From a virus: a DNA stretch of 64,000 nucleotides. The notes under the pieces are model-generated. The model worked only from the letters and a program-made list of their open reading frames with translations, was not told the origin of the DNA and did not search any database. The position numbers and the translations under genes are program-made. This document shows, piece after piece, positions 11,058 to 34,610 of this stretch. The stretch covers positions 32,001 to 96,000 of the IMG/VR virus record IMGVR_UViG_3300032093_000041; one strand, 5' to 3'. How positions within the stretch are numbered: the stretch's first letter is position 1; each line of letters opens with the position of its first letter.

Positions 11058-11058
11058 A

Positions 11059-14000
11059 ATGAAACAAATTTCTCTTGTTAAAGACAAAATAGACGGGTCC
11101 CCTTTTGCTGTCCTCCTGATAGACAAAGGTTCTGTCACGGCATATGGCTCTCCTGGACAAGGAGAAGACTGGGCAGAATGGGTCAATAGTCAAGAAACAT
11201 CCGTAGAAGAAATACAAGATGTTCTAGATGTTCGCCTGGTTGCTGAACCATCAATTCCAGCAAAAAAATTTAACGAGAGCTCAATCAGTAGCTACTTAGG
11301 TCAAGAAGCAATGGACTTGCTAATGGCAGAGTTAAATAAAAAAGCTCTGCTAGAAATAGTTCAAGTTAAGTCAGAAAGTCAGCCGCAGGAGTATGACGAG
11401 GAAGACCTTCCGGACTACACGCCCATATCGGTGTGGCCGTTGTCTGAAATATCGCTGGCTTCCATAGATGTTGCATACAAATCTCAGCTTGCTGATTACA
11501 AGGCTAAAGCTTTCAACGCCGACAGAAACAGGCGGGCGCTTGCTCTTGAGGTGAAGTGGGCTAGAGCTATTTGGGATAACGACCGTCAAGGATGGCGTTG
11601 CCCACCAGAGACCACCAATGGCGGCCAGTTCACTAACAGAATGGGTCTTGGTTGCACCACTGGTCTTGTTCGACGTCTTGGTCAATCTCTGATGAGCATT
11701 GAAGACAGAAATAAACTTCAGATGCAGCTCCCAGGACTAGAAGACCCGAGAGGTTTCCTGTATCGCTCTGGTTCATTAATTGACCAGCGAGCAGAAACTA
11801 GACAGCGTGAATTTGCTGACCGACAAGAACGTCGCGCAGCACGCCGCGTTCGCAGTCTTATCGAAAAAGAAGGAAAAAAAGAACAAGAGCGTTTAGCTAA
11901 AGAAAACAAACGCAAACATCGTTCTGGGGAATCTCTAAGAGATATTTATTCAAGTTTTACGCCAGACGCAAGCAGAGTGTCTCGCGCACGTGCTGCTGGA
12001 GCAGTAAAGCTTCGTCGGTTTGCATCCAACGTAGAGCAAGAATCACTCAGGAATATTGGGGCGAGTCAACAGCGCAGAGACCGCAGGGTTAGGGACGTAT
12101 CAGAGGAAAAGCTAGACAGTAAGAAGATACGCAAGCTCCGCGATTTTGGTGGAAAAATACCTGGTTCAAAACTTGGAGGCTATGTCCAGTACGACAAGAT
12201 GATGGCAGACGACAAAGGGCAGGCTGTCGACATCAATGGCGAACTCATGGTCCCTCGTGTTCTTGTGGACATGGATGAAATGCACTCTAATCCATACTAC
12301 GGAAGAGAATTTTTAACAGATGATTCCGGTAATCAAGTAGAAAATTTCCATGCCAATCATAAGTGGGTCACCGTAGAAGAAGTACTCGCTATGGCGTCTA
12401 TCAATCGCGCGACCAAACCAGCACATGACTGGATTGAAATGCGTAAGGGGCGAGGTTTCCCTGGTGATGAAACCATTGAGTTTGTTGAAGCAAAAGAACT
12501 TCGTAAAATTCAAAAAGACAATGGATTTATTGGAGTTCGGTCAAGCTTAAAAGACAAAGGCAAAGGCCGTTTTGACGGAGACACTCGCGGCAAAGGCAAG
12601 AAGAAGACAAAACCAGCGCAAGGCGGCTCCATCGGCGACATGGAATTTGAGCCAGATGAATTGCCGCCAACCGTCGCAAAAAGGTTTGGAGATGCATGGC
12701 GCGATAGCAGAAAACGTCTTGGTTCGTGGATTGCAAACCTTGACCCCTTGCTAGATGAAGACCAGAAAACACGTCGCGAAAAGCGTCGCCGCCAAAAAGC
12801 TTCAAAATCTAAAGACTCGAGCGCCATAAACGGTGCAAACATTCTTCAGTCTCTATTCTCTGATATTGATGACCCGATAGAGGCAACCGTGCGATACGCA
12901 CAACTGTCCAACTTTAAAGAACCAGAGTTCAGAGACTGGTACGACTACACCACAAACAACAAACCAGTACCTGAGCGTCGCGAAGATTGGAACTTTGGAT
13001 TCAATAGTGTAATTGGCGAACCGACACCTCATTTTGCTCGGCTCAAAAACCTTATAGACGGAATAGTGTCAGAACACGCCGCTGGCGTACTGATTACAGC
13101 GGACGACTCAGAAGACCCCGATATAACCAAATTTATTTTTCAAGATTACGACTTCAGTACAAAGTTTAGGTCTGGTCAAATTGGGAATGTATACAACGTG
13201 CGTGTTGTAACAAGGACTGATGGCGTTGAAGAAGTACGACAAATAGCTGTAGATTCAATAAGTCTAAATCGCTGGACGGATAATCCATTAGACGAGAACA
13301 GACAACCAATTACGGCAACTGATGCAGGTCTATATATGCTGTGGTCAAACACAACGTTTTTAGATGTTCCGGAAGATGTCGTAGAGAGAGCAGCTAGTGG
13401 GCAAATGCCTACGTTTGAGCTCGTAGAGCTTGCTGCGAAACAATGGGTGGACCCAGGGTATCACGGTGCTCAGCCGCCTGCTTTCTATTATGACCAGGCC
13501 ACTAAATGGCACGAACATTACAGGGTTATCGGCTTCAACCAAAAGGGTGCTCCGCTATATATCAAGGGTGCAGGCGGGAGGGGTCGGACCGGGTCAACGT
13601 CGGTACATATCCCTGGCACATCAAATTCTGTCGTAGACACGAGAACCGGTGGTCTTATTTCTGGCCGCATGAGCCAAGAAACAATAATCACCCCAGAAGG
13701 TCAGCGAGCCCTAGACGACCCTAATGTGAATATTTGGACTGGTGAACAAAACTTTCTGGTGCTTGACGGAGGCCCTGCACCCGGGCGCGGACGCCGGCGT
13801 CGTCGCACATCTGGTCCTACGCCCCAGTCTCCTGGTGTTGTATCGCGCTTCCTTGATGGAGAAGGTCGCCAACTAAGTAGAGAACGCCGCAGCGCAAGAA
13901 GGATGCTAAAGGGGCGTACACCAAAAGACACACGCCCGATACGTCAACGCATAGAAGCTGCGCTGTATGAGAGGTCACGTCGTCGGTCAGGCGAGCCAAG

Positions 14001-17000
14001 ACCCATTTCAATGCAGGCACCGGATATCGACATAAACGTTTACTCCGACGAGCTTCGCAGAATGGAAGAAAGCGGAGAGTCGATAGAGGCACGCAATGCA
14101 CTTCCACCGATAGATGGCGTATATGACTGGTTGCTCCCAGATAACTTTTCCGCTGGCAATGATTGGTGGGGCTCTGGCGTAAACCAGCAACGAATAGACA
14201 CCCTTAATGCTTCATTACACGAGCTTGGAGGTTCATTCTTCCCGCTCGTATCGCAACGCGATATTGACCGTTTGCCGCAGCTTGCTGAAGAAGGCAGAAA
14301 GTGGCTAGAAGACATAAATGACCCTGACAAGGATTCTGCTCCTGGAGAAGTATCCAACTGGGGTTTTGCCGAATGGAAAGAGTATGGAGGATATACATAC
14401 GTTTACGATTCGAGGAACGAAACAAAACCGCCCATTGCAATCGTAAACAACGAATCCGGCACAACGCACATGATTGGCAAAGATGGCCAACACCTTATGA
14501 CTCTGGTCACGAGAGTGGCTCCATCTGGAGAAACTGTATTTTTGCCCGTTGGCTCAAACTCGACGCATAAACGGCTCGACAACATCACTGAGCAGCCGGG
14601 ATTCTTGCAGACAGTTTTAGGTAAATTCCGTAGACGCCAACAGCAAGACATAAACCCAGAGCAGATTATCCCTGGTCTTCGTTCCAGAGAACGAGCATTC
14701 ACTCGTGGCGACAATACAATTGAGGACGTTCGTTCCCAGTTTGAGAATGGGACACCTTCAGATACGTTCCCATACTCATTTGCAACAAAGCAACGTACTG
14801 GCGCATTAGCTCCAACTTCTCTTACAACTCTTCAGGAGGAGTCACTGCTAGAAGAAGCAGATAAACTGCAGGTACAAATCGCCGATGACTTTAGACGTCA
14901 ATTGGGTCTAAACAAAAAAGACCAACTGACCGAAGAGGCAATCAAAGACCTCATTGATGACCTCCAACGTCGTGGCAAAAAACGCGAAGCTGGAATTGCA
15001 ACAAACAACCTTCACGACCTTGCCGTACTTGATGACATGTTGCAGTCACGAGACGTTATGCATGTCAACAACCTAAAGCCGGGCCGCAGGCATCTACTTT
15101 TAGGCACAAGCGTAAACCCAGTACCAGACTCCGAGCAAAAGCGCCGCCGCGCAATGACGCCAGACATGATTCACGTTTCCAGTGATTCAAGAGCAATGGA
15201 TTCAAGGCTTTCAGACAGAGGGGACACAGACCCAGCAACGTCTAAGAGAACATATCCGAGTGGAGCAATAAATCTCTACGAACCGTCTGAAGAGTCGTTT
15301 ACGCCTTCATCGCCAAGGCCGCAAACTGGACCAGCCCTCATTCCGGGGGAGGGCGATGCTACTGGAACAATTGTTTATCAAAACGGAATGTATTTTGATA
15401 CGTCAACAAACCGTTACGTAGAAGACTTAAGTGGTCTCGATTTTGAATCAGCAGACTTTGTCCATGTTCCTGTTCCTTTAGAGGAATCTTCTACAAACGG
15501 AATCGACGATTTAGGCGGGGAGTTTCCTAAAATTCTTCTTACTTCCGGACCTGGTGCTCCTAGTCGACAATCGGCAGTCATAGCTCCTGGAGTTTCAAGC
15601 ACGAATCCAGAAGCCGCTCTTACTTCTAGGCCAGATGCTGTTAATGCCGTCGTAGCAAAACCGAATTCATTTACCGAAGCATTTTACTTAGTAAGAAATA
15701 GATGGCGTCAGATTGCCGCAACAAAACCTGCCGACCAGACTGAGCCATACCGAAAGCTGACAGACAAGATTGGCGCAGACCCAGCTCCGACTGCATTTAT
15801 GCTGTCGTCGCTGTTGAGCCCGCTTCTTTCTAAGGCAGACGGTCTGGAATCAGAAGAAGGCGTGTCTCTATATTCAGCACCAATTCATTCCCCTACGCTT
15901 TCCGGTAGCGACAATGCCGCAGGAATATTGAGGGCAATAAGAAACGCATCAAGAAAATCACCAACAGAAAACGGTCTTTTCTCTGATTACTTACCTGGTT
16001 CATCAGGCGACATTGTCTCGTATTCTGGTATGGCAGTTGGGCCCCACGCACCCCGTGGGCAGACGGTACTTGACGCAATAGGCGTATTTGCTGACTTGCC
16101 GTTTGAGACTGTTTATATACCGAGCACCCAACCAATAGCTCCAAATGTGGCGCAGCACAATAGTTTAGCGAATGCAAACCGAACATTACTTGATACAAAA
16201 ATATTCCGGTCGCTGAACGCTGCACTCCAGTTGGATTACGCGTCGCAAAAAATGCGTCAGCTGCTGGATAGCGGCACACCACAAGAAATAACTGGCTGGA
16301 ACGACACATGGGGTAAAAGATTCGGCGGAAGATTTGACATAACACAAGCAGATATTGAGTCTGTCGAGCAGCTACGTGATGCAGCGTGGCAGCGTGCGGC
16401 GGAAGACCTTTCGTCCGTTGCTAAAAATGCTGGTGACCGCAGAAACGACTTCCTTAACCAGTGGCGTAATCGCTCCCAATTCCGCCCAGAGAATCGCGAG
16501 ATAGACGCTGAGCTCAGCATTGCCACCGAATACATCACTAATGGTGTTATTGCTGAGCAAGCGGAGTACCTACTCACTAAGCACATACTCACCAATCCAC
16601 GAATAATGCAAAGCCTTGCTCAGTCCGAGCTTGTATCTTTAGAGTCGCGTTCAAGAGAAGCGAACAAGAGAATGGAGAGGCTCGAAGCTATACGTAGTGC
16701 GCAAACCGCACTAGGTAGGCGCTCTATGCCTGGGTATTCACCAGAAGACATTGACCCCATTGAATTATTGCCAGTACTTGATAGACACGGTGATGGTGTT
16801 GTTACAAACGCATCACTGCGCGACCCAGCAGAAATAGTCGAAATATTGTCTGACCACAAATCTCTTGGATTTGGAGCTCCTTTAGACATAGACCCAGCAA
16901 CTGGAGAATATGTTCCATCCATTTTAACCGACGACCAAATGGAAGCATTGGCGCTAATAGATTACTCAATCCGTAGAAATCTAAGCCAAGGAAGTCCAGC

Positions 17001-18411
17001 AGATGAATACGGATATACCGGCATGCCGGAAGCAAACACCGTATTTGGACACCTAGAGCTAGACAATTTACCTCCAGAGAACCTAACTGGCTGGCAACGC
17101 CAATCCCCAGGAGCCGCTGCAGTATGGTCTCTTATGGAGGCTTCTGGATTCAACGGAAACCCACTATTGCTTGATGTAGAAGAATTTAAAGAAATAGCTA
17201 AAATTGAAGATTCATCAGGAAAACGACAAACTCTAGTTGTAACCAGAGGTATCGATTCTCATGGAAGAAACTCAGGAAGTTTTCTCACCAACTTGCTCCT
17301 AAGAGCTAAACGCTCGCTTCTTGGTTCAGGCGGAGCACAGCATGGAACGGGAGAATATTGGAGCGCTCAGCCTTTTGAATGGCGCTCAAACAGTGAGTCT
17401 TCGGCAATCGGAATGATTGTGCGCGGAAATCACAGGGTAGGTTCGCATGAATTGCTCGTAGGTACCGACAGCTCAGCAAGAACTAACGGCTCGAATGGTA
17501 TCTTGTCGGATTTATTTTACGAAGCCACGTGGGCTGTTGCAAACGCACTTGGTGCAAGAGGTTTCGGCAGCGGTACAAATCCTAGTCACGGACAAGAATA
17601 CGCAGCAGATATCCCAGTTAATTCAGTGAAAATAGACCCTGTTACCGGACTGTATGACCAGGCCGACCTGGATAACCTACAACTAAAAATCCTGGAACTG
17701 ACCAGGGCGTTTGACCCATCACAAGGCCTCGGTAGCGCTGGCCTGATGACCCTTGAGAAGTGGGCGGACAGAAGAAATTTTGTTACAGATTCCATAATCC
17801 CAGACCTTGCTGGTGGAGCTGCAGCTTCAAACTTCGACCGCAATGAGTCAGCAATCAGGGAAAGGCAATTTTTAAATGCCTGGCTTGGCCAACACTTGAG
17901 CTGGATGGTTCAACTGGCACAAATGCGACGAGATGAGTCTGACCGGGTCAACGGAAAGGAAAACGCTCAGTGGAATAGGCGTCTAGATGCTGCTCAGCAC
18001 TCCATCGTGATGATGGACCCAAATGCCAGAGCAGCAATGATGGGGTATGACGTTCTGATTAGACATGACCAGAACAGTCATAACTGGAGCAGCAGGAGTC
18101 AATACGACACAGACGCCAGTTATAGGTTTGGCGATTATGATTTCTGGGAGCAAGACAGCAGCAGAATAACACTCCATAATCCGAAAGTGTTGCTGATGTT
18201 AAACAGAACAGCCACTCCGATGCTGAGGCGTGTCCATTCTTCTCAGACATGGGCCGTTAGAAGCAACCGGAGCGGAGGGCATTTCCTTGATGGGTCAGGA
18301 CTGACAATCGCAGACATATTGCAGGAGATACCAGCAAATCCAACAACACCTGAAGAACAATATATCGCCGATACTCTTACTAGGTATATAGAATTATGGG
18401 GCGGACTATGA
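11059..18411 (+). CDS. Giant modular protein B (2450 aa) with probable C-terminal ADP-ribosyltransferase-like domain
   Basis: LEVK and RCPPETTNGGQFTNRMGLGC; ISGRM at 13657; C-terminal GFNGNP...VVTRG...GSGGAQHGTGEYW...MGYDVLI...LMLNR. Confidence 0.8.
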   Translation: MKQISLVKDKIDGSPFAVLLIDKGSVTAYGSPGQGEDWAEWVNSQETSVEEIQDVLDVRLVAEPSIPAKKFNESSISSYLGQEAMDLLMAELNKKALLEIVQVKSESQPQEYDEEDLPDYTPISVWPLSEISLASIDVAYKSQLADYKAKAFNADRNRRALALEVKWARAIWDNDRQGWRCPPETTNGGQFTNRMGLGCTTGLVRRLGQSLMSIEDRNKLQMQLPGLEDPRGFLYRSGSLIDQRAETRQREFADRQERRAARRVRSLIEKEGKKEQERLAKENKRKHRSGESLRDIYSSFTPDASRVSRARAAGAVKLRRFASNVEQESLRNIGASQQRRDRRVRDVSEEKLDSKKIRKLRDFGGKIPGSKLGGYVQYDKMMADDKGQAVDINGELMVPRVLVDMDEMHSNPYYGREFLTDDSGNQVENFHANHKWVTVEEVLAMASINRATKPAHDWIEMRKGRGFPGDETIEFVEAKELRKIQKDNGFIGVRSSLKDKGKGRFDGDTRGKGKKKTKPAQGGSIGDMEFEPDELPPTVAKRFGDAWRDSRKRLGSWIANLDPLLDEDQKTRREKRRRQKASKSKDSSAINGANILQSLFSDIDDPIEATVRYAQLSNFKEPEFRDWYDYTTNNKPVPERREDWNFGFNSVIGEPTPHFARLKNLIDGIVSEHAAGVLITADDSEDPDITKFIFQDYDFSTKFRSGQIGNVYNVRVVTRTDGVEEVRQIAVDSISLNRWTDNPLDENRQPITATDAGLYMLWSNTTFLDVPEDVVERAASGQMPTFELVELAAKQWVDPGYHGAQPPAFYYDQATKWHEHYRVIGFNQKGAPLYIKGAGGRGRTGSTSVHIPGTSNSVVDTRTGGLISGRMSQETIITPEGQRALDDPNVNIWTGEQNFLVLDGGPAPGRGRRRRRTSGPTPQSPGVVSRFLDGEGRQLSRERRSARRMLKGRTPKDTRPIRQRIEAALYERSRRRSGEPRPISMQAPDIDINVYSDELRRMEESGESIEARNALPPIDGVYDWLLPDNFSAGNDWWGSGVNQQRIDTLNASLHELGGSFFPLVSQRDIDRLPQLAEEGRKWLEDINDPDKDSAPGEVSNWGFAEWKEYGGYTYVYDSRNETKPPIAIVNNESGTTHMIGKDGQHLMTLVTRVAPSGETVFLPVGSNSTHKRLDNITEQPGFLQTVLGKFRRRQQQDINPEQIIPGLRSRERAFTRGDNTIEDVRSQFENGTPSDTFPYSFATKQRTGALAPTSLTTLQEESLLEEADKLQVQIADDFRRQLGLNKKDQLTEEAIKDLIDDLQRRGKKREAGIATNNLHDLAVLDDMLQSRDVMHVNNLKPGRRHLLLGTSVNPVPDSEQKRRRAMTPDMIHVSSDSRAMDSRLSDRGDTDPATSKRTYPSGAINLYEPSEESFTPSSPRPQTGPALIPGEGDATGTIVYQNGMYFDTSTNRYVEDLSGLDFESADFVHVPVPLEESSTNGIDDLGGEFPKILLTSGPGAPSRQSAVIAPGVSSTNPEAALTSRPDAVNAVVAKPNSFTEAFYLVRNRWRQIAATKPADQTEPYRKLTDKIGADPAPTAFMLSSLLSPLLSKADGLESEEGVSLYSAPIHSPTLSGSDNAAGILRAIRNASRKSPTENGLFSDYLPGSSGDIVSYSGMAVGPHAPRGQTVLDAIGVFADLPFETVYIPSTQPIAPNVAQHNSLANANRTLLDTKIFRSLNAALQLDYASQKMRQLLDSGTPQEITGWNDTWGKRFGGRFDITQADIESVEQLRDAAWQRAAEDLSSVAKNAGDRRNDFLNQWRNRSQFRPENREIDAELSIATEYITNGVIAEQAEYLLTKHILTNPRIMQSLAQSELVSLESRSREANKRMERLEAIRSAQTALGRRSMPGYSPEDIDPIELLPVLDRHGDGVVTNASLRDPAEIVEILSDHKSLGFGAPLDIDPATGEYVPSILTDDQMEALALIDYSIRRNLSQGSPADEYGYTGMPEANTVFGHLELDNLPPENLTGWQRQSPGAAAVWSLMEASGFNGNPLLLDVEEFKEIAKIEDSSGKRQTLVVTRGIDSHGRNSGSFLTNLLLRAKRSLLGSGGAQHGTGEYWSAQPFEWRSNSESSAIGMIVRGNHRVGSHELLVGTDSSARTNGSNGILSDLFYEATWAVANALGARGFGSGTNPSHGQEYAADIPVNSVKIDPVTGLYDQADLDNLQLKILELTRAFDPSQGLGSAGLMTLEKWADRRNFVTDSIIPDLAGGAAASNFDRNESAIRERQFLNAWLGQHLSWMVQLAQMRRDESDRVNGKENAQWNRRLDAAQHSIVMMDPNARAAMMGYDVLIRHDQNSHNWSSRSQYDTDASYRFGDYDFWEQDSSRITLHNPKVLLMLNRTATPMLRRVHSSQTWAVRSNRSGGHFLDGSGLTIADILQEIPANPTTPEEQYIADTLTRYIELWGGL

Positions 18412-18797
18412 AATCTATAGATAAATCATCTTTAACGTCAGACGAATTTGCAATGTATTCACAGAGCAAGTTAAAACTAAAACGAGCCGTGGAGGACATG
18501 TATCAACTTGCTGAGTTGCCTCCATTTGCTTTTGACAAGACAGGAAAAACTCCAGAACTTGCTGGGGAATTCATACAAGACATAAATGAACACCTTCGAG
18601 ACATTGATGAAGAAGATTTCATCACAGATAGATATAGGCCACTTGTAGACATAAAAACCAAATATGAAAACGAACTCAATGAAGCTCGCAAAATACGCGA
18701 CAGTGCGCCCAAGCTTGGCCTAGCGTTAAAAAAATGGTTTGAAGACAACAATCTACGAATGGACGAAGCGATAGCGTATTTCTACGGCGTGGATTAA
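18408..18797 (+). CDS. Small helical protein coupled to giant protein B
   Basis: ATG 18408 overlaps TGA 18409-18411 (ATGA). Confidence 0.7.
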   Translation: MKSIDKSSLTSDEFAMYSQSKLKLKRAVEDMYQLAELPPFAFDKTGKTPELAGEFIQDINEHLRDIDEEDFITDRYRPLVDIKTKYENELNEARKIRDSAPKLGLALKKWFEDNNLRMDEAIAYFYGVD

Positions 18798-18799
18798 AT

Positions 18800-21700
18800 A
18801 TGCTTATTGAAAACGAAGACGAGAAGCCTAGGAACAGAAAGCTTCGACGCAACAAAAAAAACTGGGAAAAGCTTAGAGAAAAACCAATTGTCGCTATCGA
18901 TACCCTGTCTGGTGGCGGTCTTGTTTCAGGTCAAATATCGGGCAAAGCTCTGGGAGGACGCATAGGTCGTCGTATTGGTGGAGCCTCTAAGCCAATGGAT
19001 ATGAATCCGACTACAGCAAGAGACGCCGACATGGACGGAATGGTCTTAGAGGGCATACCAACAATTCGCCAAGGAAGAGGAATGCCAGACCCCACACCGG
19101 GAGGCGAAGTCGCCGGCCGAATGGGCAGGGAGCAAAATAAAGAAGAGTTTGTAGGTGTAGACAAGCTTTTGCGCCAACATTTTTCACAGTTTGCAAAGTT
19201 TCAAGAATGGACGAAAAACAAAGATTGGAACGCATTCCATAGAAACCATTTTGACTGGTGGATGTTTCCAATCCCTCTCGGTTCTAATTCATATAGGGAT
19301 GAGTACAACATTGCCGGGGAACCGCTAGAAGAACTACGGCAAAACAAACGCTACATGGCAACGCTGGCGAGCGCAATGAGGATGTACACACGTTCAATCG
19401 GCTGGGACATGGACAGTCAAGAGTGGATAAATAACGCCGAAATAGAACGTGGGCAAGAGCCAGTTAGAAGCCTTAATCGTGCTCGCTTACTCAAAATTGC
19501 CCAGTCAGCTGAAGCTCATGGTCTAGATAATGAACTTAGCTCGATGAGCCACATGGTCAACGACATGCGTTCGAACGGCATCCCAACCGGAAATGATGAA
19601 TACTGGAATTCTATTTCTGGAAGGATGAGCAATCCTGATAGACCAAATTTTCCACTTAACCCAAAACAAGGCGACACTTTCTCTTCAGATGACCCAGAAG
19701 ATACAAGAATATGGAAATTTGATGGAAAGTTATGGGTTAGGCAAGACGGAGGCGGAAGACGCTCCGCGACAGTTGGGTTCCGTAAAGCCGGTGGCAGCGG
19801 GGGTAAAAGTATATCTCCATCAGCTTCTTCTATTAGGGCTGGTTCAGAAAGAACTGTAAAATATGGTTCGCCAGCTTTCGATGAGCTGTGGGAACGCCGC
19901 GACAAAGAAAACGAACAGGCGGACGGCACCAACCTAACATTTGACTGGAAAAATGAAGAGTCAAGGCTTTACTACTTATCAGTATTTGGCAAATTTCCCA
20001 ATACTCATCCTAAAAATAGAAAAAAAGTGGGATGGGCAAAATTTGGTGGGGGTAACGAGCCTGGGAATTATTCTGGGGGAACTCACTCCTGGATTGCTGC
20101 AGTAAAGAATCAATTGCGTGAACTTGGAATTTCACTCGTCCCACAAGAACACCCTAAAATGGGGGACCAATATGGAAGCTGGATTTCTTTCTCCGGCAGC
20201 CCTGGTGCGTCTGCTGCAGAAGGAGCATCAGCAAAACAGCTGTTATCTCATCTTGCAGAAACAATTAGCCCTGATACATTCTATGAACACTTTGAAGCTT
20301 GGATTAGAAATCCATTTGTAACAGCACAAAAAAACGGCAAAGACGTTGGCGTAAGACTTGCTTTCAACAATGATAAAGAAAAGCTTTTAAATGAATACCG
20401 GCGTAGAGTTATAGCGCTACGAGATGCATTGTACTCTCATTTTGGTAACGAGGTTGACGAAGTTGCCGAAACAATGGTTAAGCCCCTAACAGACTCATCA
20501 GGAAAATCCAGCACCAATACTGGGAACGATTGGGTAGACCTAACAGAAAATGCTAGATGGGCTTCCAACTTAATCAAACAACAAGTATCAAATATTCTTG
20601 AACAAGAAAAACCTCGCAGCGAAGAACGCCTTGCATATCTTTTAGATTCGCGACTGCAATCAAAGCTACCTGATGAAATAAGGCAACAAATACGAACATC
20701 TCCTAGTTTTATTAGAGGCTTGCTTCAAGAAGAATTCAAAAACAGGGACTGGGGGAGAGGAGATAATTTCTCCCAAATAGATTTAATGCCCTCCGTTGAT
20801 GACGAAACGGTGTCCCTGATTGAAGAATTAGCTGACGAATTTATAGAAAAACTAATAAGCGAAAATGCCGATGTGAGCGTAGTAAGTGACGCAGATTCTA
20901 AAAATTTCATTGATTCATTTGTTCAGGATTCCTCAATGCGGACATCCGCAGCAAAGCCGATGTTGCAGAGCAAACTCAGCAACAGAATAGCTAGAGGACA
21001 AATTTCTGGGAAAATGGGAAATACCCCAGAAAATGACATAGAAGCGAAAGACCTTGAATACGACCCCGACACGCCAGAGCATTTAGGGAACCATTTCACA
21101 TCGAAACATGAAGGGTACGACGTTAGGCCTAACCCTGTAGACAACGTCTTGGATGCGCGCAATACCGGCGCACCACTGGAGTGGCTCGTACCAGGTTCGT
21201 ATCACCCAGAAATAAAAGAATTAGTCAATGGGCTGACGGACAAGGTATTGGAGCTTGGGTTTGCTAGTTACCTACAAACAAATCCAGACTTCTACATGGG
21301 CTCTAAAGATACCGCTGGTCGCGATGCAGCATCGGAATTCAGAGGTTGGCTCGGAGGATGGATTGGAGCAACTGTTTCCAAGATAATGGCCTTGGGTGAT
21401 TTTGGTGAAGATTTTGAACTAGACGACGGTCATAGGGACTTCATAAGAAATTTCGTAGGAGACATGGCCGACACAATGACCCGCTTCTCTGACATACCGC
21501 GTGAAGACCCTGACGGTCGTGGCGGCAACACAATGCAAGTGCTTCGTGGCCTTATTTCTCGTGTTCCTGGATTTGGTTCAGGGGGAAGTATGACAAGCGA
21601 CCTAAGTCAAGAAGTAAATGACATAGCCAGCGGACTAGCAATGCGGGCCATACACGCAGGGTTAAAAATCAACAACATGCAACGTATGGGTATTAGCGAT

Positions 21701-22603
21701 AGACGTAGGGCGAACCAAGACACACTTGACTGGTGGAACTCTGCCATAGGCGCTGGCCTGCTTTCTACATCTCCTAGCGATTATGAGTCGATAGACGATA
21801 TTGGATACGAAAACCTAATGAAAGAGTCGCAAGTATCTGTGGCCATGCCTATTAATGCTGTTTTAAATATGTTTGCTGATAACGAGTTTAAAACGCTATT
21901 TGAAACAAACACCAGCCAAGGCAATGTCAACACTTCAGCTCGGGCCGCAGCAGAATTTGCGATGTTCGGAATCCTCCCCTCATATAAGGGGAAGAGGCCT
22001 GCTTACGGAATTTTGCACGTCGGCGGAATGACAGAAGATGCAATAAAAAACACGAACCAGTACGGACCCATAAGAATTGTCCTAAACCCCGACATGAATG
22101 AAAAGGTTACTTGGACAGAAATTGACTCACTGTCCTTGATGTCAACAGCTTCAACGTTAAAGAACCCGTCACAGCATGGGCTTTTTGGACAAAGGCTTAC
22201 TTCTGACACCCCCTTTACAAGGGTTTCGGCAGCCGACATTATCTCTCTTATCGAGCGTGGCCGAGATGTATCAAATAGCGCAGACGACAAGAGTGCCATA
22301 GGTAGGTCCAAATATGCAGAAGCTCAAATTCATTCAAAGATAACTCTGGAAGACATTCAATACATTGTCGTTGACGACACCGACTTTAGATGGGGGGATA
22401 TTGATTTTCCTCCATTTGGTCCTGATGGGATGATTCTGATGCAGGACGACGATGGTTATGAGGAAGCAGCAGATGAATTTCCCGATGACATTATGGATTA
22501 TGAAGGATTTATTCAGATATCCAAAATTGCAGAATCTCTTAACATTCCCGTTGTTCTGCTCAGTGATATAACAAATGCTGGCGAAGAGGTGGTGAGGCCG
22601 TGA
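18800..22603 (+). CDS. Giant modular protein C (1267 aa): DxDxDG module, OGFr/DUF1810-like domain, unknown module, DUF3626-like domain
   Basis: HFDWWMFPI...RLLKIAQS; FKTLFETNTSQG...RPAYGIL...YGPIRIVL...DSL...YAEAQIH; linkers VAGRM, ISGRM, ISGKM. Confidence 0.85.
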   Translation: MLIENEDEKPRNRKLRRNKKNWEKLREKPIVAIDTLSGGGLVSGQISGKALGGRIGRRIGGASKPMDMNPTTARDADMDGMVLEGIPTIRQGRGMPDPTPGGEVAGRMGREQNKEEFVGVDKLLRQHFSQFAKFQEWTKNKDWNAFHRNHFDWWMFPIPLGSNSYRDEYNIAGEPLEELRQNKRYMATLASAMRMYTRSIGWDMDSQEWINNAEIERGQEPVRSLNRARLLKIAQSAEAHGLDNELSSMSHMVNDMRSNGIPTGNDEYWNSISGRMSNPDRPNFPLNPKQGDTFSSDDPEDTRIWKFDGKLWVRQDGGGRRSATVGFRKAGGSGGKSISPSASSIRAGSERTVKYGSPAFDELWERRDKENEQADGTNLTFDWKNEESRLYYLSVFGKFPNTHPKNRKKVGWAKFGGGNEPGNYSGGTHSWIAAVKNQLRELGISLVPQEHPKMGDQYGSWISFSGSPGASAAEGASAKQLLSHLAETISPDTFYEHFEAWIRNPFVTAQKNGKDVGVRLAFNNDKEKLLNEYRRRVIALRDALYSHFGNEVDEVAETMVKPLTDSSGKSSTNTGNDWVDLTENARWASNLIKQQVSNILEQEKPRSEERLAYLLDSRLQSKLPDEIRQQIRTSPSFIRGLLQEEFKNRDWGRGDNFSQIDLMPSVDDETVSLIEELADEFIEKLISENADVSVVSDADSKNFIDSFVQDSSMRTSAAKPMLQSKLSNRIARGQISGKMGNTPENDIEAKDLEYDPDTPEHLGNHFTSKHEGYDVRPNPVDNVLDARNTGAPLEWLVPGSYHPEIKELVNGLTDKVLELGFASYLQTNPDFYMGSKDTAGRDAASEFRGWLGGWIGATVSKIMALGDFGEDFELDDGHRDFIRNFVGDMADTMTRFSDIPREDPDGRGGNTMQVLRGLISRVPGFGSGGSMTSDLSQEVNDIASGLAMRAIHAGLKINNMQRMGISDRRRANQDTLDWWNSAIGAGLLSTSPSDYESIDDIGYENLMKESQVSVAMPINAVLNMFADNEFKTLFETNTSQGNVNTSARAAAEFAMFGILPSYKGKRPAYGILHVGGMTEDAIKNTNQYGPIRIVLNPDMNEKVTWTEIDSLSLMSTASTLKNPSQHGLFGQRLTSDTPFTRVSAADIISLIERGRDVSNSADDKSAIGRSKYAEAQIHSKITLEDIQYIVVDDTDFRWGDIDFPPFGPDGMILMQDDDGYEEAADEFPDDIMDYEGFIQISKIAESLNIPVVLLSDITNAGEEVVRP

Positions 22604-22826: not shown

Positions 22827-25800
22827 ATGACTGATACGCAGAACATAGACATTGAGCAAAAAGACGTTCTTGGGGCTCCGCGCAGAGTGCGCACTACCGA
22901 CCCGGACGTTTTCTCTGACCCAGAATCGGCCAGAGTTGCTGCGCGACGTCTTGGATGTATTGGGATTAGAAGATATCTAAACCGCTCAGGCGGAGAGTCA
23001 TGGATGCCATGCACCAATGAGTCCGACTACAGAAAATATAGCGGGATAGGTGTTTCTGGTCGTAGGTTCCGACGCCAGCAGCTGGAAAGAGATATCAGGC
23101 AAATCACCGGCCGAGGCAAGCTTGCAAAGAAGACTTTAGAAGAAGCTGTCGAAACGAAAGCAAGCAAAAAAAATAACTACACAAAGCCGGAATTGCGCGA
23201 GAGAATCAAGCAGCGAATTATGGCTGGCTCTGAGGGTGGAGCCCCCGGACAGTGGTCTGCAAGAAAAGCGCAAATGCTCGCTCAGGCGTATAAAAAAGCA
23301 GGTGGCGGATACAAGACTGGCGGAAAAAGCAAAACGCAACGTTCGCTTTCTTCGTGGACTAAAGAAAAATGGACCACGAGCGACGGTAAAAAAGCTCGCA
23401 GAGGTAGCTACACCAGAAGATACTTGCCAGCTAAAGCGTGGTCAAAGCTGACACCGGCGCAAAGAGCGGCTACCAACAGGAAGAAAATACAGGGTTCTCG
23501 CAGCGGAGAACAGTTTGTCCCTAATACGGATGCGGCAAGAACGGCACGCAAACGTTCAGTTAGGGGCGTAAAACACGTTGAGTTTTATGACGGCATCGAA
23601 ACAAAATCAATCGATGGTCTGATAGAGGAAAAGGCATTATCTCGTCGTTCTTCCAGAAGAACTCTTAGAACTCCTGGTGCGTTGCGTCCTAGATTGGGAG
23701 CAACCGGACAGGATATGAATCCCGCAACAGCGAGAGACGAAGACCTAGACGGCTTAGTTCTTGAAGGAATTCCCACAATTAACCGTGGTCGCGGTGTAAT
23801 TGACCCAACCCCGGGCGGAAGACCGAGTCGGTGGGTGCCAAGAATGCGGCCTCAAAGGACGCAAGCGCCAACACCGGAAGAAAAACCTCAGCCTCGTAGG
23901 CAGTTGCTCCAGCGACCAGAAAGATTGCCAAAACCAAAGGCTGAAAAAGTACGCGAATCTAAACTTAATTGGCTCCCAGAAGATGCTGATAAATGGACAG
24001 AAGACGATGCCCAGAGGTTGCTCGATACGCAAAAAGCTTCCGGTCTTTCTTACGGTGAATTTGCAAAACAGAACGGACTTTTTGCTAACGACGTTCGTGA
24101 ATCAGTAGAAAGACAAAAGTCTCGACGCAAAAAGCGCATCAGTGCTTTTCGCAAAAATAACCCCAAACTTTTTGCTGCTGTTAACAGTTTTGGAGCTGTT
24201 AAAGACGAGGCAATGGAAGCGGTTTCTAGAGGAAAAGTTAACAACTGGGGCTCACTTGTTTCATGGGCGTTTAAAGACAATGACTTAAAGCGCCAAAGAC
24301 TAAACGACAGGGCGGTAAACGACCTATTTAACAATGTGTCAAATGGTCTTGACCCAGACGGAAAGTCAGATGTAGTTCTTGGTTTTGTGCCGTCGCGCAC
24401 GAAACAAGGAGAAATGACTAAGACTTTTGCCCGAGCAAACAATCTTCCCGATGGTTTCGTTAGTAGATACAAGACTCCGAGAACAGCCATACAGCCAGCT
24501 AGAAGAATTACTTCCACGGCCGAACGAGCAGAACGTCGTGGAGAGCGACGCGTTGGAAGAATAAGCAGAGACATAGAGGCAACAGCTAGGGCGTTTGAAA
24601 GGTTTGACGCTATTTCCGGCCGCATGGGTGGGATATCAGGACGCATGGCAACACCGTCTGGCCCAGACTCACAGTGGACAAACCAAGAAAAAGCACAGTG
24701 GAAAGCCGGTCAGTGGCGTAAGAGGTTCCTCTTCGATGAAGCCCTAAGTACTGCAAGGGTTAATTTATCACCTGAAATGCAGGCACATATTGCCAAGTAT
24801 CCTGATGCCGCAACTGCAGCAAGAGCAATCCTTGACCTATCTGACCAAGATTTAGACAAGCTGTTCAAGGGTCATAATGACGCGCTCAAAGCAGCGAACG
24901 TAGCCATTAAACCTCCAAGAAAAGATGAACTTCCGCTTCTTCCGTCTGAAGTTGCTGCAGCAGCACAAATCAAACGTCCTCTCGTTAGAAGCTTCCTTGA
25001 TGAGTACAAAAAAATGGCACCGAATGGGACTTTGTCGCGTCTTGATGTTGACGTACTCTCTAATGAAGACATTGAAGAACTGTTTAATCGCTACATACTG
25101 CCAGAGATGGTCGACCCAACAAAGCTCGATGCTGCTGGTGTAATTGATGTTGCCCAGAGAATTTCTCAACCGGGCCAAGAAAATTCACCGCTGCGCCTGC
25201 TGGACAATCTTGCATATATGGCCGGCGACGATGCGATGAGCCTGGAAGCAAGAAGAAGAGTTCTTCAAGAAAAACTTGCCGCTGGTGTTGCTCAGGGAAC
25301 CATGACCCCGGCTCAACAGCAGGCAACACAAAATGCGCTTGATGCCCTAGATGAAGAACTAGCAAAACTAATAGCTGACTACGAAGCTGGAAAGCCTTTA
25401 GATTCGTCTATACCGTTGCAGCCTTTAGACGACCCGAGGCAAATGCCAAGATGGGCTGGCGGACGTAGGGCGCTTAGTTTTGAAGACCCAGTAACAGCAG
25501 ATGATTACATCATGTTTTTGTTGGAAAACAATGACATTGGCTTCCACCCAGAATGGGGTCCAATCACCAAGCCTGAATGGGAGAACTGGTCAGAAGACAT
25601 ACAGGAGAGGGCCGCAGAAGCAGAACGCGTCTATAGAGAAGGCGGAGAACTAGAAGCTAAAGACGCCATAGACGCTTTGAATGCAGAGTATCAGCAATGG
25701 ACACAGGTTGGTCTTGAGGCAGGATGGATTCAAGAGCCAGAAGAAGACGAAGAGTTTGAAGAACCGCAGCCTGAGCGCCCAATACGTGATGAGTTTGGTG

Positions 25801-28800
25801 TTCTCGATGAAGATTGGGTATGGAACACAGAACACGGTTCCCCCGAAGAGCTTGGCGTAACCGACGACCCAGCAACGTGGGCTCAACACCCGGACAACGT
25901 CGAAGACGACGGCGTAACCCTAATCCCACTTGACGAACTAGAAGAATTGATTCTCAAGTATGCGCCGAAACAGTTTCAAGCTGACCTTCTCGAAATACTA
26001 AAGCCAAGTGAGTGGACAGACCCACACAACGGTCATATCGACCAAAGATACATTGACCTCCCGCCCGAATTAATTGATTATTTTGTCGGACAAGCAATGG
26101 GAACAATGCCGCCGACCCCATCAAGCTCAGGACAGATGCCAACACCAAACCTTGGTGGAATACAAGGTGATGGAGTTGGACTTTCCGACCCGGGCGGACC
26201 AAGACTTCGCAAGGGCATACCTTTTATACCAAGGAACATCAACTGGGACTCTGCATTGCGCATGTTCCAGCGAATTCTAAATAAACAAGGAAAACAAGCA
26301 TCGTCAAAAGGCTCTTATGCAACTGCAAGTCGCCAGTATGACCCAGCACTTGGTGTTTATGACGACTGGGGTGCACTACAGCTACAGAACCAGTTTGTAG
26401 AGGCTGCAAAGGAAGCCCGCGAGCTTTACGTTACGGGAACTGGACAAGATTCTCGCAAAGCTCGAGAGCAGGTTTGGAACCTTCTTCAATCAGGAAGAAC
26501 TCCGCAAGAAATAAGCCATGAACTGATTATTTTTGGTGCAGACCAGCCGGACACAAATAGGCCTCCTCAGCCAATTGATTTGCGTGACTTGGTTAAAGCT
26601 GCAGCAACACAGTACGCAATAGATAACAACATCAAAACTTCAGATGTAACAAAACTTCTCAATGCAGCAGACCAGGCTTTCAATTCTGATACAGCGCGTC
26701 AAGAGGCGTTTAGGAGAAGCCAGCTTGAGCGCTTGCGTGACGACCTAACCCGTCTATTTAGCGGCCAAAGCCCACAACAAATCATTAGCTCTATTGATGG
26801 TCTGATTGAAGAAACAGAAAGAAAGAAATGGTTTGCTGACCAGGCATACAGAATTGAACGCGGACATGATGCTCGGTTAAGAAAAGCCGCTCTTGACCTT
26901 GCTGAGTCATATCCTGTTCCAACCGCTCGTCGCGCAATATTTATGGAACCAGATGGGACCATAACTGACAGCCCAAGCCGTAGAGCAAAAGCCCTCTATC
27001 AGGAGCCATACACTGGCGAAGTAACTGACGACGACACGAGGGGATGGCCTCAGGCGTTTGATGAAGGTTATGACCCAACACAAATAAGTCGGGCACGCCA
27101 TGCTAACCGCATATATCGCTGGTGGAGACAAAACTGGGGTTACATCGAGCGAAACGAAAATGGTGAAATTACTCGCGAATATGTAGGTCCGCTGCAGGGA
27201 ACACTAAAGGCTCATCAGCTTCACGCACGTAAATACGGAAACGAAGGTCTTGCTGGAACAACTGCGTATGCAACAAGAACAGCAGATTCTCGAGTCCAGC
27301 AGCTTCGTGAAGTAAAAAGAACCATAGAGGGGGCGCGGCAAGAGGGTCGAGGCATGGGAATATCTGGCTTCATGCGAAGCGGTGGGCCGAACCTTTACGA
27401 TGAATATTCACGGAAAGCAGCTCGCGTACTTGTTTCGGGACGCCGCAAAAACAAACCTTCATCAATGCTGCTTGGCTACGATTCTGACGAAATGCCAATT
27501 ACAAGAGCAATGAGGACGGCATTTTCTGGAGGAAGTGGGAAGTTCCTTGGAGCATCTAATGAGCATTCATTTGCTGCATTAATGAACCCCGAGAACGTTG
27601 ACTACTTTAAACATCTATCACCGGTGGAGAAAGACTACTTTAGAGCCCTCTACTCAAATCCAGACTTTGTCGTTGCCGTATCAAAAGATGTGACTGCACC
27701 GCTGCCGAACAGAACACGCGGTGCTTCCACCGTCTCCCCAGACGAAGCAATAATAAATGCATTCCGTTCGTCTATGGATGCAACGCGACCAACGATTTCT
27801 GGTCAGATGGGATTGAGGAGAACGCTAAGCAACGCTAGCAGAGTTGCAAGATACAACCCTGAGAGATGGCAGCGAGAATATTTAACAGCTAGAAATAGTT
27901 TCCGGATGACCTCGCCTTTCAGGGGCAAGAAAAAGCAGAACTACAAGCTTGAACAAATAACTCTGAAAGACAGCGTTTTTAAGCCAGTAGAAGGTCTTTA
28001 TCTTGTAGATGCAGATACAAAAAATGTTATCGACGGACCTTTCAAATCAGATGAATTAGGTTTATTGGCCAGTGAAAAAGCCAAGGGCGCAGAAACAAGC
28101 GTTATATCTAAAAATTATCCTCGTCCATGGGAGCAAATGCCTGAGATTCAGGAGCTAATTGCTAACGGCGTGAGTAATGAATTGCGTGATTTTATGACGC
28201 TGGACTCACACAAGATAAGCGACATACGCAGCACTGTTTACGACACTATTGAAGGCAAAATTAACCAATATGCACTAGACCTTGATAAGGGCGTCCCACA
28301 GAAAGCGTCAGATACGGCAATATTTAGTCGCGACCCTGATACGGGGGCGCTAATGGTTCTTCTTATACAAAGAGCGTTCGGTCCACACAAAGACGATACC
28401 GGTGCATGGGTTCTCCCTGGAGGGTTTGCTGACCCTGGCGAAACCGCACTAGAGACAGCATTGCGTGAACTAGAAGAGGAAGTAGGACTAAAAGTAAGTC
28501 CGACAGATGCGCGCGTTAAGCAGATAGGAACAATAACAGCACCAGACTGGGATGTGCGCTTTACAAAAGGCGTAGAGGTCAGTGGTACTGCGTTGTTTGT
28601 ATCTCCAGACGCTGCCTTTAAGGCTGGAGATGACGCGCTGAGAGCGCAATGGTTCCCTGTTCAGGATATAGCGGACGGAAAACTTCCAATCGGGTTCGGA
28701 CATGTCGCGTGGATTAAGAACGCTATGGCTCTGGAAGTTGATGACCCGGCAAACTATGGTCCTGACTACGAAAGTTTAAGAACAGGTTTAGACCGTGTTG

Positions 28801-31800
28801 AAAGAGCAACGCGTGCTAGGAATAAAGAACTAATTGAAATTTCAAACAGCTGGCGCAAAGAACTGAATAAAGGCAGAGCAAAAGCCGACAAGATAAAACT
28901 TTTTGACGAAAAAAACCTTGGTTCATATTCCGCTTGGGAACTAGCTCCATCAGACGACATGATGAGGCTCGGCTCAATATCCCGCATGAGGCTAATGGGC
29001 AGAGAGGTAACTCCAGAATCTATTGCCGCGGACGTAGAAAGAACCCGTGAAAACCGTCTATCCAGAGTTGGTTCAAATTTTGGTCCGTCAATATCTGGAC
29101 GCATGGGTGAAGGGTTTGAAAACAACATGAACGACATGCACTTAAGAGGCATGTCGTCTGACGAAATAAAAAATAAGCTGCGCCAAGAAAATGGCGTCAG
29201 TGAAGAGGATATAAATCGTTACGTTCTCTATAGCGGAATACAGTTGTCTAAAACTTCAGACAATGTTTCAGCTTCAGAGCGAAAAATGTTTGACGAGATG
29301 ATATCCAGCGGAGGCTCAATTAGAGACTTGGCAAAAAAGAACAAAATATCTTTTACGGAAGCAATGGATGTTGTTGTAAAAGTAGAGTCTTCAATCGGCA
29401 ATAGAGAGCCGGCCATAAATGCAGCATTGCGCAAAGCAATTATGAATGATTCTTTTATTTCTGGAGCAGAAAAAGCGGCGATGGTGCAGCGACTACATGG
29501 AGCATCGCGTGCCTCTGTAGCAAAATTTATGGGTATGTCGGTGGAGCGATACGGGGAAGTAGAAGCATCGATAATAGACAACCTAAAAGCTCGCAACCCG
29601 AAAATGTTTAAGTCTGCCGGTGCATGGTCTTCAAATCCAGAATCCTTATTTGCAGAACAAGATATTTTTATGCGTTATGTTCATGGCAAGCAGCCACTAA
29701 ACCGCATAGCAGAAGACCTTGGCATGACCGAAAAAATGGTCGATGGCATAGTAAAGCGATACGCCAGATGGAAAAATTCAAATGCTCCTCTAGAGAGAGC
29801 AGCAATCAAACAATCAATTTCGCAGTTTGGTTCAGCATTGAACGCTGGTGAAATTCAAATGATGCGTCGCTTGTCGGACGGAGAAAATATATTCCAATTC
29901 TCCGAAAGAACAAACATGCCGAAGAAAGCTGCAATACGCATGTATAACTCGGCAATGCGTAAAATGCATATGGAATCCGGAGTTTCTCCTCTTTCAAGAA
30001 ACTTTGACGCCAACATATATAAGGCGATACCTAAAGAGTGGATTTCTCCGTCATTCTTGTTCGAAAAAAATCCACCGAAGGCAACTAGGGCAATATCTGG
30101 CAAAATGTCAGACGTAGCAAAGAGCGCTAACAAATTTAACGCAGAAAAACGTTCTTACATGACATCCCCTATGTCTGCTTTGCGCGAAAAAGTAAAAGAT
30201 ATTCGCCAGGAAATGAGAGACCAAATACAGAATCTTTCATCTACGTCGGCTTATATGCATCCAGTATTTGGAGGGCAAGAAGGCATAGACAAAATGGCGG
30301 CGCTCGGTGCTTACATAAAAAGGACAATAGATGAATCTGTCCTAGAGGCTGTCGTGGATGCCGCACGAAAGTCAGGCTCACGGTTTTCAGGAGATAGAGA
30401 AGAAATTGCTAAGCGAGCAATGAATAAAGCTCGCAAATCTTTGATGGAAGATTTGTGGATGAAGAGAGAAATGATTGATTTTTCTCTCGACATGCATGAA
30501 ATGATTGAATCCGCATCTTGGCCATGGAGAATGTGGCAGCCAGACAGTCCTGAATGGCAGCGCCATAGGAACATCCCAGAGCTGATGGAAACATACAAAA
30601 CGAACACGCCAAAGGGTCGCCAGGCATATATAAATGCCGGCTTCTACATGCCGCTTGGCGATAATGAGATGTTTGAATTCCTAAATGCTGTCGAGGAAAA
30701 CAATTCCATTAGCGGGAGAATGTCAAACCCGAGACAGTGGGCTCAATCTAGAGACCTATACGACATAATTGGAGTTTCGGAAACAGCAACAGACGAAGAG
30801 CTAAAAAAAGCCTTTAGAGCTAAATCTCGCGTGCTTCACCCAGACGTTAACAATTCTCCAGATGCTACTGAGCAATTCAAAGAACTTGGATTCGCATGGG
30901 AAACACTAAGCAATAGCAGGTTAAGAAACCAATACGATTCATGGCGAGCAGGACGAACTTCACGCCAATCTTCTTCGGCGAGACCAAATAACACAGACAT
31001 TGCTGACGATGACATTGACGTAAGTCAATACACAGACCAAGACCTATATTTATATGACGATAAGGGTCGCCTATGGCCGCGGCATAACGCAAATAGAGAC
31101 GACTGGCCTACCGCTCCGTTTACTCAGTCAACCGTGTTCCCGCAACGCCAATGGGTCGAAAAAGAATTTGACGAATGGTCAGACTGGACTCGCCACGGCA
31201 TACAGCCATCACGCCCAGCAGGAAGTGCTCTATGGGGTGAGGGTAGAGGTACGCGAGACCTTGGTGGTGACGGTGAGATTGATGACGATGGACAAGGAGG
31301 ACCTGGCCCATCTTCTGGACCTCGTGGGCCATTTAATCCAACTTCAGGTAGCCCTGCTAATGCCTACTTCGTAGAACAACAAGTTAGGCGTGACCTTGGT
31401 CCGGATGCAACTGACGAAGAAGTGCTAGCTGAGCTAATCAGGAGAATGACCGGTGGTGGGCGTGGCCCATCAATGAGCTCTTCTCCTGGTTCAATATCGG
31501 GTCGCATGTCATCGTCGTTCCCTCCTCTTGATGACAGCGTTCAAAAACGTCTTGGATTGCAAAATCTTCCTAGTTCATATGACCAATCTGAACTTACGAA
31601 ACAGCATCCAAAACTTACGTTTGATGTTTACAAAGCCAACATTGGCGAACCATCTGTTGAAGTAACCACAACATTTGGCGGAAAGTCAAATGTCAGCAAG
31701 TATCGCTACGACAACGTTTATCGCCCCATTATTGATGCATTGGTAGCAGGAGTACAACGCCCTACTGGAGGAAAGCGTAAATTTGTTTCAGTTGGTGGGC

Positions 31801-34610: not shown

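Follow-up and report, generated by a model that had tools for sequence, protein, structure and literature searches.

Why should a phage string a Nudix hydrolase, an array of DNA-binding units, a J-domain, a zeta-toxin-like kinase and acetyltransferases on one polypeptide of 3927 aa, and place its gene among the head genes? The question is raised by a window of 64,000 nucleotides, bases 32001-96000 of the single 105,678-bp IMG/VR virus record IMGVR_UViG_3300032093_000041, in which an open reading frame (ORF) at 22827-34610 (+) starts with ATG, stays open throughout under table 11 and encodes at least six recognisable domain types. The best explanation, which we hold with a modest balance of probability in its favour, is that the product is a polyprotein loaded into the capsid and cut at its linkers by the S78 prohead protease, the modules being ejected with the DNA. 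Within this explanation we infer the recruitment, the cleavage, the identity of the protease, the ejection and every target. A sequence-only reading of the same DNA had already described the protein as a linear array of host-takeover-type modules and had proposed that they form an injected effector set.

The phage genome carries terminase, portal, S78 protease, HK97-fold capsid protein and tail genes, and its source is an uncultured actinobacterial myophage. Terminase is encoded upstream on the minus strand, followed by the portal, the 785-aa protease protein, an acidic protein of 496 aa, five giant ORFs (1723, 686, 2450, 1267 and 3927 aa, in this order) and the capsid gene; 34 kb of giant ORFs separate the protease and capsid genes.

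For a record that is metagenome-derived and, according to CheckV, ~71% complete, a mis-assembled or mis-called fusion ORF has to be considered. A protein of the same length with 99.6-99.97% identity was found in at least four other assemblies (JGI, Logan, ENA, NCBI), and the shorter members of its cluster are fragments made by contig ends or assembly frameshifts. Because these near-identical copies come from independent assemblies, the ORF is not an assembly accident, and since this architecture recurs in 44 relatives of 2270-5070 aa, we give an artefact hardly any weight. Megablast of the giant gene against 50,697 phage records gave zero matches, and no description of the 3927-aa family was found in the literature on zeta, Nudix and J-domain polyproteins or on giant freshwater-actinophage proteins.

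Linker peptide and modules

Twelve [IV]SG[RKQFS][MI] sites are present in the 3927-aa protein, at aa 596, 603, 1512, 1657, 2089, 2423, 2628, 2890, 3326, 3613, 3621 and 3785, exactly at the module borders drawn in the sequence-only reading. Eleven of the 12 fit the strict pattern [ILV][STA]GxM, which shuffled sequences matched 0.26 times on average and three times at most (n = 5000), and none lies inside a Pfam domain of the protein. The linkers delimit eleven modules (S1-S11), as follows.

22827..24611 (+), S1, aa 1-595: leader with a DUF3721-like CxC region, a DUF5872-like basic region and a shared tag
24612..24647 (+), aa 596-607: double linker ISGRMGGISGRM
24648..27359 (+), S2, aa 608-1511: conserved all-helical module of ~900 aa, of no recognised fold
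27360..27374 (+), aa 1512-1516: linker ISGFM; nearly all relatives have x[STA]GFM (xSGFM, in some xTGFM or xAGFM) behind the 900-aa module
27375..27794 (+), S3, aa 1517-1656: short module of 140 aa, retained just in close relatives
27795..27809 (+), aa 1657-1661: linker ISGQM
27810..29090 (+), S4, aa 1662-2088: module with a Nudix hydrolase domain at aa 1831-1950
29091..29105 (+), aa 2089-2093: linker ISGRM
29106..30092 (+), S5, aa 2094-2422: array of helix-turn-helix (HTH) units of the sigma-70 region 4 / LuxR type
30093..30107 (+), aa 2423-2427: linker ISGKM
30108..30707 (+), S6, aa 2428-2627: module retained in part of the relatives
30708..30722 (+), aa 2628-2632: linker ISGRM
30723..31493 (+), S7, aa 2633-2889: J-domain at aa 2643-2704, then a Gly/Pro-rich tail
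31494..31508 (+), aa 2890-2894: linker ISGRM
31509..32801 (+), S8, aa 2895-3325: zeta-toxin-like P-loop kinase (GGPAGSGKT, VDADEIK)
32802..32816 (+), aa 3326-3330: linker ISGRM
32817..33662 (+), S9, aa 3331-3612: module with a predicted GNAT fold (QQQGLGIG, invariant HWPRNG)
33663..33701 (+), aa 3613-3625: double linker VSGRMGGSISGRI
33702..34178 (+), S10, aa 3626-3784: second GNAT (KRKGIAS), matched weakly by three GNAT families
34179..34193 (+), aa 3785-3789: linker ISGSM
34194..34610 (+), stop codon included, S11, aa 3790-3927: possible HTH, from reading of the sequence

The linker codons vary synonymously from site to site at all positions, which indicates that selection acts on the peptide. 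A DNA-level signal and an internal start at the linker ATG were both ruled out by these synonymous codons together with the Met-less linkers found elsewhere. In the rest of the 105.7-kb genome the motif occurs at nine sites, all in the four other plus-strand head-module ORFs (four in the 1723-aa, one each in the 686-aa and 2450-aa, and three in the 1267-aa ORF, one of the latter being VAGRM at aa 104), apart from one chance match in an unused frame; the protease protein contains a near-copy, SSGRMGG. The logo of 346 sites in relatives reads G-[IVL]-[STA]-G-[RKFA]-M-[AGS], with flanks rich in Gly, Ser, Asn and Pro.

Pfam was run on the whole 3927-aa protein, and some segments were also scanned alone. 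The Nudix, J-domain and zeta kinase assignments of the sequence-only reading all proved to be above the Pfam cut-offs. S4 matched NUDIX with 59 bits (aa 1831-1950), carries an intact Nudix box (GFADPGETALETALRELEEEVGL, which fits GX5EX7REUXEEXGU) and found 2fml, 3i9x, NUDT18 and the NadM-Nudix protein 2qjo among PDB sequences. S7 matched DnaJ with 67 bits over profile positions 1-63 and PDB J-domains at E down to 3e-15, and the HPD tripeptide, previously described as intact, is present (VLHPDVN). S8 matched Zeta_toxin with 65 bits at aa 2979-3134. While a PDB search with the single S8 sequence gave no match, a profile of 12 S8 relatives matched the zeta toxin 1gvn at E 1e-10; GGPAGSGKT and VDADEIK of S8 align with GGQPGSGKT and IDNDTFK of 1gvn (Walker A and DxD, respectively), and D124, D126 and K129 are invariant across the 12 relatives.

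The substrates that had been named for the kinase and the Nudix hydrolase remain assumptions. Because DSTGQ stands in S8 where zeta has the UDP-N-acetylglucosamine (UNAG, UDP-GlcNAc)-binding EGTGR, phosphorylation of a UDP-sugar is uncertain. AvrRxo1 is a zeta-like kinase that acts on an NAD-type substrate, and by analogy such a substrate is possible for S8. The ADP-ribose substrate suggested for the Nudix module is likewise doubtful. No epsilon/PezA-type antitoxin was recognised for S8.

The four sigma-region-4-like HTHs that had been seen in S5 agree with the profiles of its relatives, and four to five units were read off the alignment. HTH_28 (aa 2280-2314) was below the cut-off in the whole protein and reached 25.5 bits against a cut-off of 25 with S5 alone; Sigma70_r4_2 matched three of the four aligned S5 members (best E 6e-7) and GerE two of the four. 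In the PDB, the S5 profile found the LuxR-type HTH of RcsB and EvgA, RcsB at E 0.004. At the position of S11, relatives carry expanded HTH arrays.

Two GNATs had also been proposed, and both are supported, S9 by its predicted fold and S10 by the profile match of a relative. S9 has no Pfam match. Its AlphaFold2 (AF2) model, made from a four-sequence alignment, is moderate (pLDDT 66, pTM 0.67). Foldseek, which had been suggested as a check in the sequence-only reading, gave only GNATs as top matches (E 9e-4, prob 0.99-1.0), and VIA, which is independent of Foldseek (48,161 chains), placed GNATs in all of its top 50 positions (Z 6.7-8.3, root-mean-square deviation ~3 A over 105-135 residues). QQQGLGIG, a Q/RxxGxG/A acetyl-CoA motif, is invariant in the four S9 sequences. 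A GNAT fold of S9 is thus supported by modelling. An Atlas search with S9 returned only unnamed clusters, one with 20% Acetyltransf_1, and no stand-alone S9 homologs of 157-503 aa were found. S10 remained below the Pfam cut-offs (22.3 and 18.1 bits; Acetyltransf_7/_1 at aa 3723-3754), whereas its 64%-identical homolog in the relative P0005 matched Acetyltransf_1 with 23.3 bits against a cut-off of 20.7.

The ~900-aa module S2, to which no family had been assigned, is helical, and no known fold was matched: for its AF2 model (pLDDT 70, pTM 0.39), Foldseek gave nothing usable either in the PDB (best E 0.44) or in BFVD (best E 3.5e-3, TM <0.1, tape-measure-like helices). Relatives of S2 occur solely inside giant homologs, as judged from a search of 1.84 billion representatives. 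In the leader S1, the DUF3721 (aa 34-65) and DUF5872 (aa 121-216) likenesses noted earlier are below the Pfam cut-offs, while strong matches were obtained to two PHROGs of unknown function (17747 at E 4e-21 and 14910 at E 5e-16).

Relatives and exchange of modules

A word-indexed search of 5.8 billion proteins yielded 48 giant relatives of 2170-5070 aa, all metagenomic, 44 of which bear 3-11 linker-pattern sites at conserved positions and use lineage dialects such as ISGNM, VSGKM, ITGAM and LTGAM. The array is not a free assortment, because the leader, the 900-aa module, the Nudix and the kinase keep one order. The HTH array, S6, the J-domain, the GNATs and the C-terminal HTHs vary between relatives. 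P0002, a relative with 84% identity, lacks S9. A module 56% identical to S9 occurs in P0045, a polyprotein that is not otherwise related and has GFASRS junctions, and one with 65% identity stands at a different position in locus L005. S10 sits before the kinase in P0021 and P0022. That P0002 lacks S9 while an unrelated polyprotein has it means that modules travel as cassettes. The linear array described in the sequence-only reading is supported: the named families match, and the relatives show gain, loss and relocation of accessory modules at the linkers.

For the comparison of gene context, loci were collected from IMG/VR via the capsid and protease proteins; a related capsid protein is encoded at 317 of them and a related protease at 281, with capsid identities of 72-91% in the 80 capsid loci compared. 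Many giant ORFs upstream at these loci use other joints ([RG]LSSG, STRS, GLASR). Such joints are found in L006, L014, L017, L020, L049 and L063, whose capsid proteins are 72-78% identical; the conserved capsid together with the differing joints indicates that the linker dialect changes between lineages. At L034:8810-9697, a zeta-kinase module has one in-frame stop, being either a broken copy or a sequencing error.

These observations lend themselves to a wider reading, which we find credible without quite leaning to it: that abundant freshwater actinophages possess a plug-in cargo system, in which one short linker peptide, recognised by the HK97-type head protease, and one common capsid-targeting tag would allow any enzyme module to be spliced into a small number of giant head genes, loaded, cut free and injected. 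In such a system 34 of 106 kb, about one-third of the genome, would be a swappable effector library, and in each lineage the dialect (ISGRM, VSGKM, ITGAM, RLSSG or GFASRS) would evolve in step with the protease.

Proposed packaging and delivery

A tag of 70 aa at aa 262-331 of the 3927-aa protein (nt 23610-23819) is 56% identical to aa 42-102 of the 1267-aa ORF, and a pattern search recovered its core, DxDxDxxVxEG, from 29 of 49 proteins in the homolog set. The 1267-aa ORF and P0045-P0048 each have their own linker behind the tag, at once or within ~20 residues; in the 3927-aa protein the next linker lies 265 aa downstream. A tag followed by a linker is the layout of a cleavable targeting sequence, and this is its putative function as judged from sequence. 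The five giants contain 13 Cys in 10,053 residues and the capsid, tape-measure and tail proteins none, against 1.5-2.6% Cys in the non-structural enzymes that this genome encodes. With 0.08% Cys, the 3927-aa protein is thus as Cys-poor as virion proteins and unlike the cytoplasmic enzymes of the phage. The injected effector set proposed in the sequence-only reading fits the head-operon position, the Cys depletion, the shared tag and the analogy with polyvalent proteins discussed below; its delivery we infer.

The same position in the head operon could be read differently, as it shows late co-expression only. A late cytoplasmic multi-enzyme, processed or not and never delivered, might condition the infected cell, for instance by recruiting a chaperone for head assembly or by adjusting nucleotide pools, and a J-domain could indeed aid head assembly by recruiting DnaK. 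The Cys content does not match such a role, however, and the tag is common to other head-module giants. Moreover, there would seem to be little use for HTH, kinase, Nudix and GNAT modules that appear only when infection is ending, unless they are carried to the next cell, and relatives bear cargo of the ADP-ribosyltransferase type at the same place. We consider a purely cytoplasmic role improbable.

In the capsid-loaded polyprotein that we prefer, the 3927-aa protein would be made late, alongside the head proteins, and would be recruited to the procapsid, probably via the N-proximal leader tag that it has in common with the 1267-aa ORF. The S78 prohead serine protease would cut the eleven junctions marked G-[IVL]-[STA]-G-x-M-[AGS], and the released modules would remain in the head, enter the next host cell with the DNA and act ahead of phage gene expression. 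There, the J-domain would engage host DnaK, the sigma-region-4/LuxR-type HTH modules would bind DNA or the transcription machinery, the Nudix and the zeta-like kinase would alter nucleotide or nucleotide-sugar pools, with NAD/ADP-ribose-type signals or cell-wall precursors as possible targets, and the GNATs would acylate host targets. These module functions are predicted from family membership alone.

Possible cutting at the linkers

Which protease would cut is suggested by the 785-aa protein, which has Peptidase_S78 at aa 30-175, DUF6321 at aa 194-265 and, at aa 322, the sequence SSGRMGG. Proteases with xxG[RK]MG after DUF6321 accompany G[RK]M linkers in six of the six loci readable for both, while lineages with GRV, GRA or GRE in the protease are without G[RK]M linkers.

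Several observations weigh against cutting by this enzyme or against cutting at all. The association of protease and linker is suggestive and not independent, because the lineages are related, and the GRM of the protease lies within a longer conserved stretch, NPxxGRMGxLAKA, which could be structural. The putative capsid maturation region K[ST][IL]G[QE][ML]F (here K-S-I-G-Q-M-F, which we take to resemble the HK97 maturation site K/SLG) is constant across the ISGRM, RLSSG, GFASRS and STRS lineages, and co-variation of this region with the linker was accordingly rejected. The core S1-S2-Nudix-kinase has a constant order in nearly all of the 44 relatives, which suits an uncut protein too. Finally, no natural gene fission at linkers was found among near-identical cluster members.

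In view of the conserved core order, the constant capsid site and the embedded GRM, the giant might instead be packaged and delivered as a single uncut protein, with ISGRM as a flexible joint or as a peptide docking to the inner capsid, in the manner of the encapsulin cargo-loading peptide or the HK97 protease tail. Doubled linkers suit docking as well as cutting, and, as noted in PMC5512222, the N4 virion RNA polymerase (vRNAP) goes into the capsid without being processed. We nevertheless regard an uncut giant as rather unlikely. The invariant Gly and Met, the small residue after Met and the Gly/Ser/Pro flanks at every border have the usual look of a protease site. Different linkers at the same positions in unrelated lineages fit a fast-evolving pair of enzyme and substrate better than binding to a conserved capsid, and in several proteins the tag directly precedes a linker, as in cleavable targeting sequences.

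Alternatively, the polyprotein might be cut by another protease, namely a module of a neighbouring giant, a host enzyme or the protein itself, and perhaps after entry as in MARTX. Built-in zincin peptidases were proposed for polyvalent proteins (Iyer et al., 2017), HExxH (zincin) motifs are present in P0045 and P0047, which have GFASRS/GFSSxx linkers, and one HETGH was found at aa 473 of the 1723-aa ORF; since the capsid site stays constant whatever the linker, it assigns the cut to no particular protease. On the other hand, the 3927-aa protein has no HExxH, by which a built-in zincin peptidase was ruled out, and no Pfam peptidase was detected in any of the giants of this phage. S78 is the sole recognisable protease of the head module, its own protein carries SSGRMGG, and G[RK]MG proteases co-occur with G[RK]M linkers. 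Cutting by an enzyme other than S78 is, in our opinion, unlikely.

Neighbouring genes

To locate the head genes, tblastn was run with proteins from the closest phages in culture, namely the Chidiebere group of Gordonia phages and the Brevibacterium phage Cantare. These are myophages (sheath and baseplate genes) in which the protease gene stands directly before the capsid gene, and genes for RNA ligase, VIP2-like ADP-ribosyltransferase and HNH lie between portal and protease. The features in and around the head module, and those that bear on the host, are as follows.

Genome 30568-32925, window 2..925 (+): prohead protease, 785 aa, which starts 1432 nt before the window; the window holds its C-terminal part
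1092-2582 (+): 496-aa ORF with a very acidic, Met-rich, scaffold-like middle and a PepSY domain
2857..22603 (+): four further linker-bearing head-module ORFs
8997-11057 (+): the 686-aa ORF among these four
34607..34792 (+): 61-aa ORF, whose ATG overlaps the stop of the giant gene (ATGA)
34936..36279 (+): major capsid protein, HK97 fold (Pfam Phage_capsid, E 2e-41)
38382-39623 (-): probable lysin, 413 aa, with an Rpf-type transglycosylase domain (PF06737) and an SLT domain
42226-42426 (-): WhiB-family gene (58.8 bits)
56282-56479 (-): WhiB-family gene (49.5 bits)

The two WhiB genes support an actinobacterial host, WhiB being a hallmark of actinobacterial phages. The Rpf-type domain of the probable lysin again indicates such a host. 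The capsid protein is 48% identical to those of the Gordonia and Brevibacterium myophages. The C-terminus of the 496-aa ORF shows 65% identity to the last 69 residues of the protease from Gordonia phage ChisanaKitsune, so that a part of the ancestral protease-scaffold protein has apparently become a separate ORF.

The protease protein also has a Cys/Gly-rich stretch (CGCGGSCGG...CQCGGSCGGSC) and two tandem copies, each of ~59 aa, of a Pro-rich repeat (MPRTDEPIEIPEEIPVPEP...). The portal (genome 28189-30477; L083:2190-4475) has a C-terminal MuF-like domain (PF04233, E 4e-7). The 1723-aa (2857-8028) and 2450-aa (11059-18411) ORFs share an N-proximal RCPxxTxxxxQFTxxxGxxC (34% over 44 aa), which would amount to another type of common leader, different from the tag that links the 1267-aa and 3927-aa ORFs. 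An RNase_T exonuclease lies between two linkers of the 1723-aa ORF, and the 1267-aa ORF has a DUF3626 domain. The 61-aa ORF is conserved in place in L003, L004, L005, L007 and L008 (26-61% identity); its product could be a chaperone, a small protein of the head or a partner resembling an antitoxin.

Significance

Should the linkers prove to be cut, this phage family would take protein delivery from the capsid to an extreme, with ten thousand cargo codons written as five polyproteins with uniform, recognisable punctuation. There would then be a simple sequence rule for spotting injected phage effectors in metagenomes, and a scheme from nature for packing foreign proteins into capsids. It would also provide a defined substrate motif for an HK97-type prohead protease, the specificity of which is, to our knowledge, poorly known. 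The conserved core of Nudix, zeta-like kinase and 900-aa helical module points to an early step of host takeover or anti-defence; we know of no such takeover mechanisms for the hosts that dominate freshwater bacterioplankton.

Comparison with known systems

At the level of a single module, S8 is comparable to zeta/PezT, since it matches the family profile and 1gvn and conserves the Walker A Lys and the DxD; it differs in having DSTGQ for EGTGR and no recognised epsilon-type antitoxin, and in being a module within a polyprotein. At the level of the whole chain, MARTX proteins are giant carriers with exchangeable effector arrays between protease sites, and their repertoire varies between strains. 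The 3927-aa protein would putatively share with them the giant carrier, the swappable string of effectors and the protease sites, while sequence and route are unrelated and MARTX is self-processed by a built-in cysteine protease inside the eukaryotic cell.

Among the concepts described so far, that of the polyvalent protein comes nearest (Iyer et al., 2017; PMC5512222). Polyvalent proteins of phages or conjugative elements combine many (2-15) unrelated domains in one polypeptide, are encoded in the virion module and were predicted to be packaged, processed and delivered with DNA (PMC5512222). The 3927-aa protein resembles them in its phage origin, its many disparate domains and the position of its gene between the prohead protease and capsid genes, and GNAT, kinase and NUDIX-linked domains belong to their repertoire. 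It differs in that none of their hub domains (zincin MPTase, ArdC-N, DdrB-ParB and others) was detected in it, and in its zeta-toxin and DnaJ modules, two families that go unmentioned in PMC5512222. Processing of polyvalent proteins is ascribed mainly to built-in peptidases, and that paper describes no uniform junction peptide such as the present one, which is common to five head-module genes and variable between lineages.

A precedent for packaging and injecting a protein of such size is the N4 vRNAP (~3500 aa), which differs in being packaged uncut, in having one main activity and in lacking any sequence relation (PMC5512222). For the mechanism itself, the SPN3US prohead protease cuts nine head proteins, including itself, at 14 motif sites (PMC10052503). 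There and in T4 and phiKZ, single units lose a propeptide at a motif that ends in Glu, while the 3927-aa chain would yield about eleven products at a motif with Met, and the T4 protease gp21 is of the S77 type, that of the present phage being of the HK97 S78 type. The capsid-targeting sequence of IPI-III and Alt is removed by gp21. With N-terminal targeting, a cut at a short motif and ejection, the internal proteins IPI-III and Alt of T4 and the head proteins of phiKZ and SPN3US represent the nearest studied mechanism (PMC10052503).

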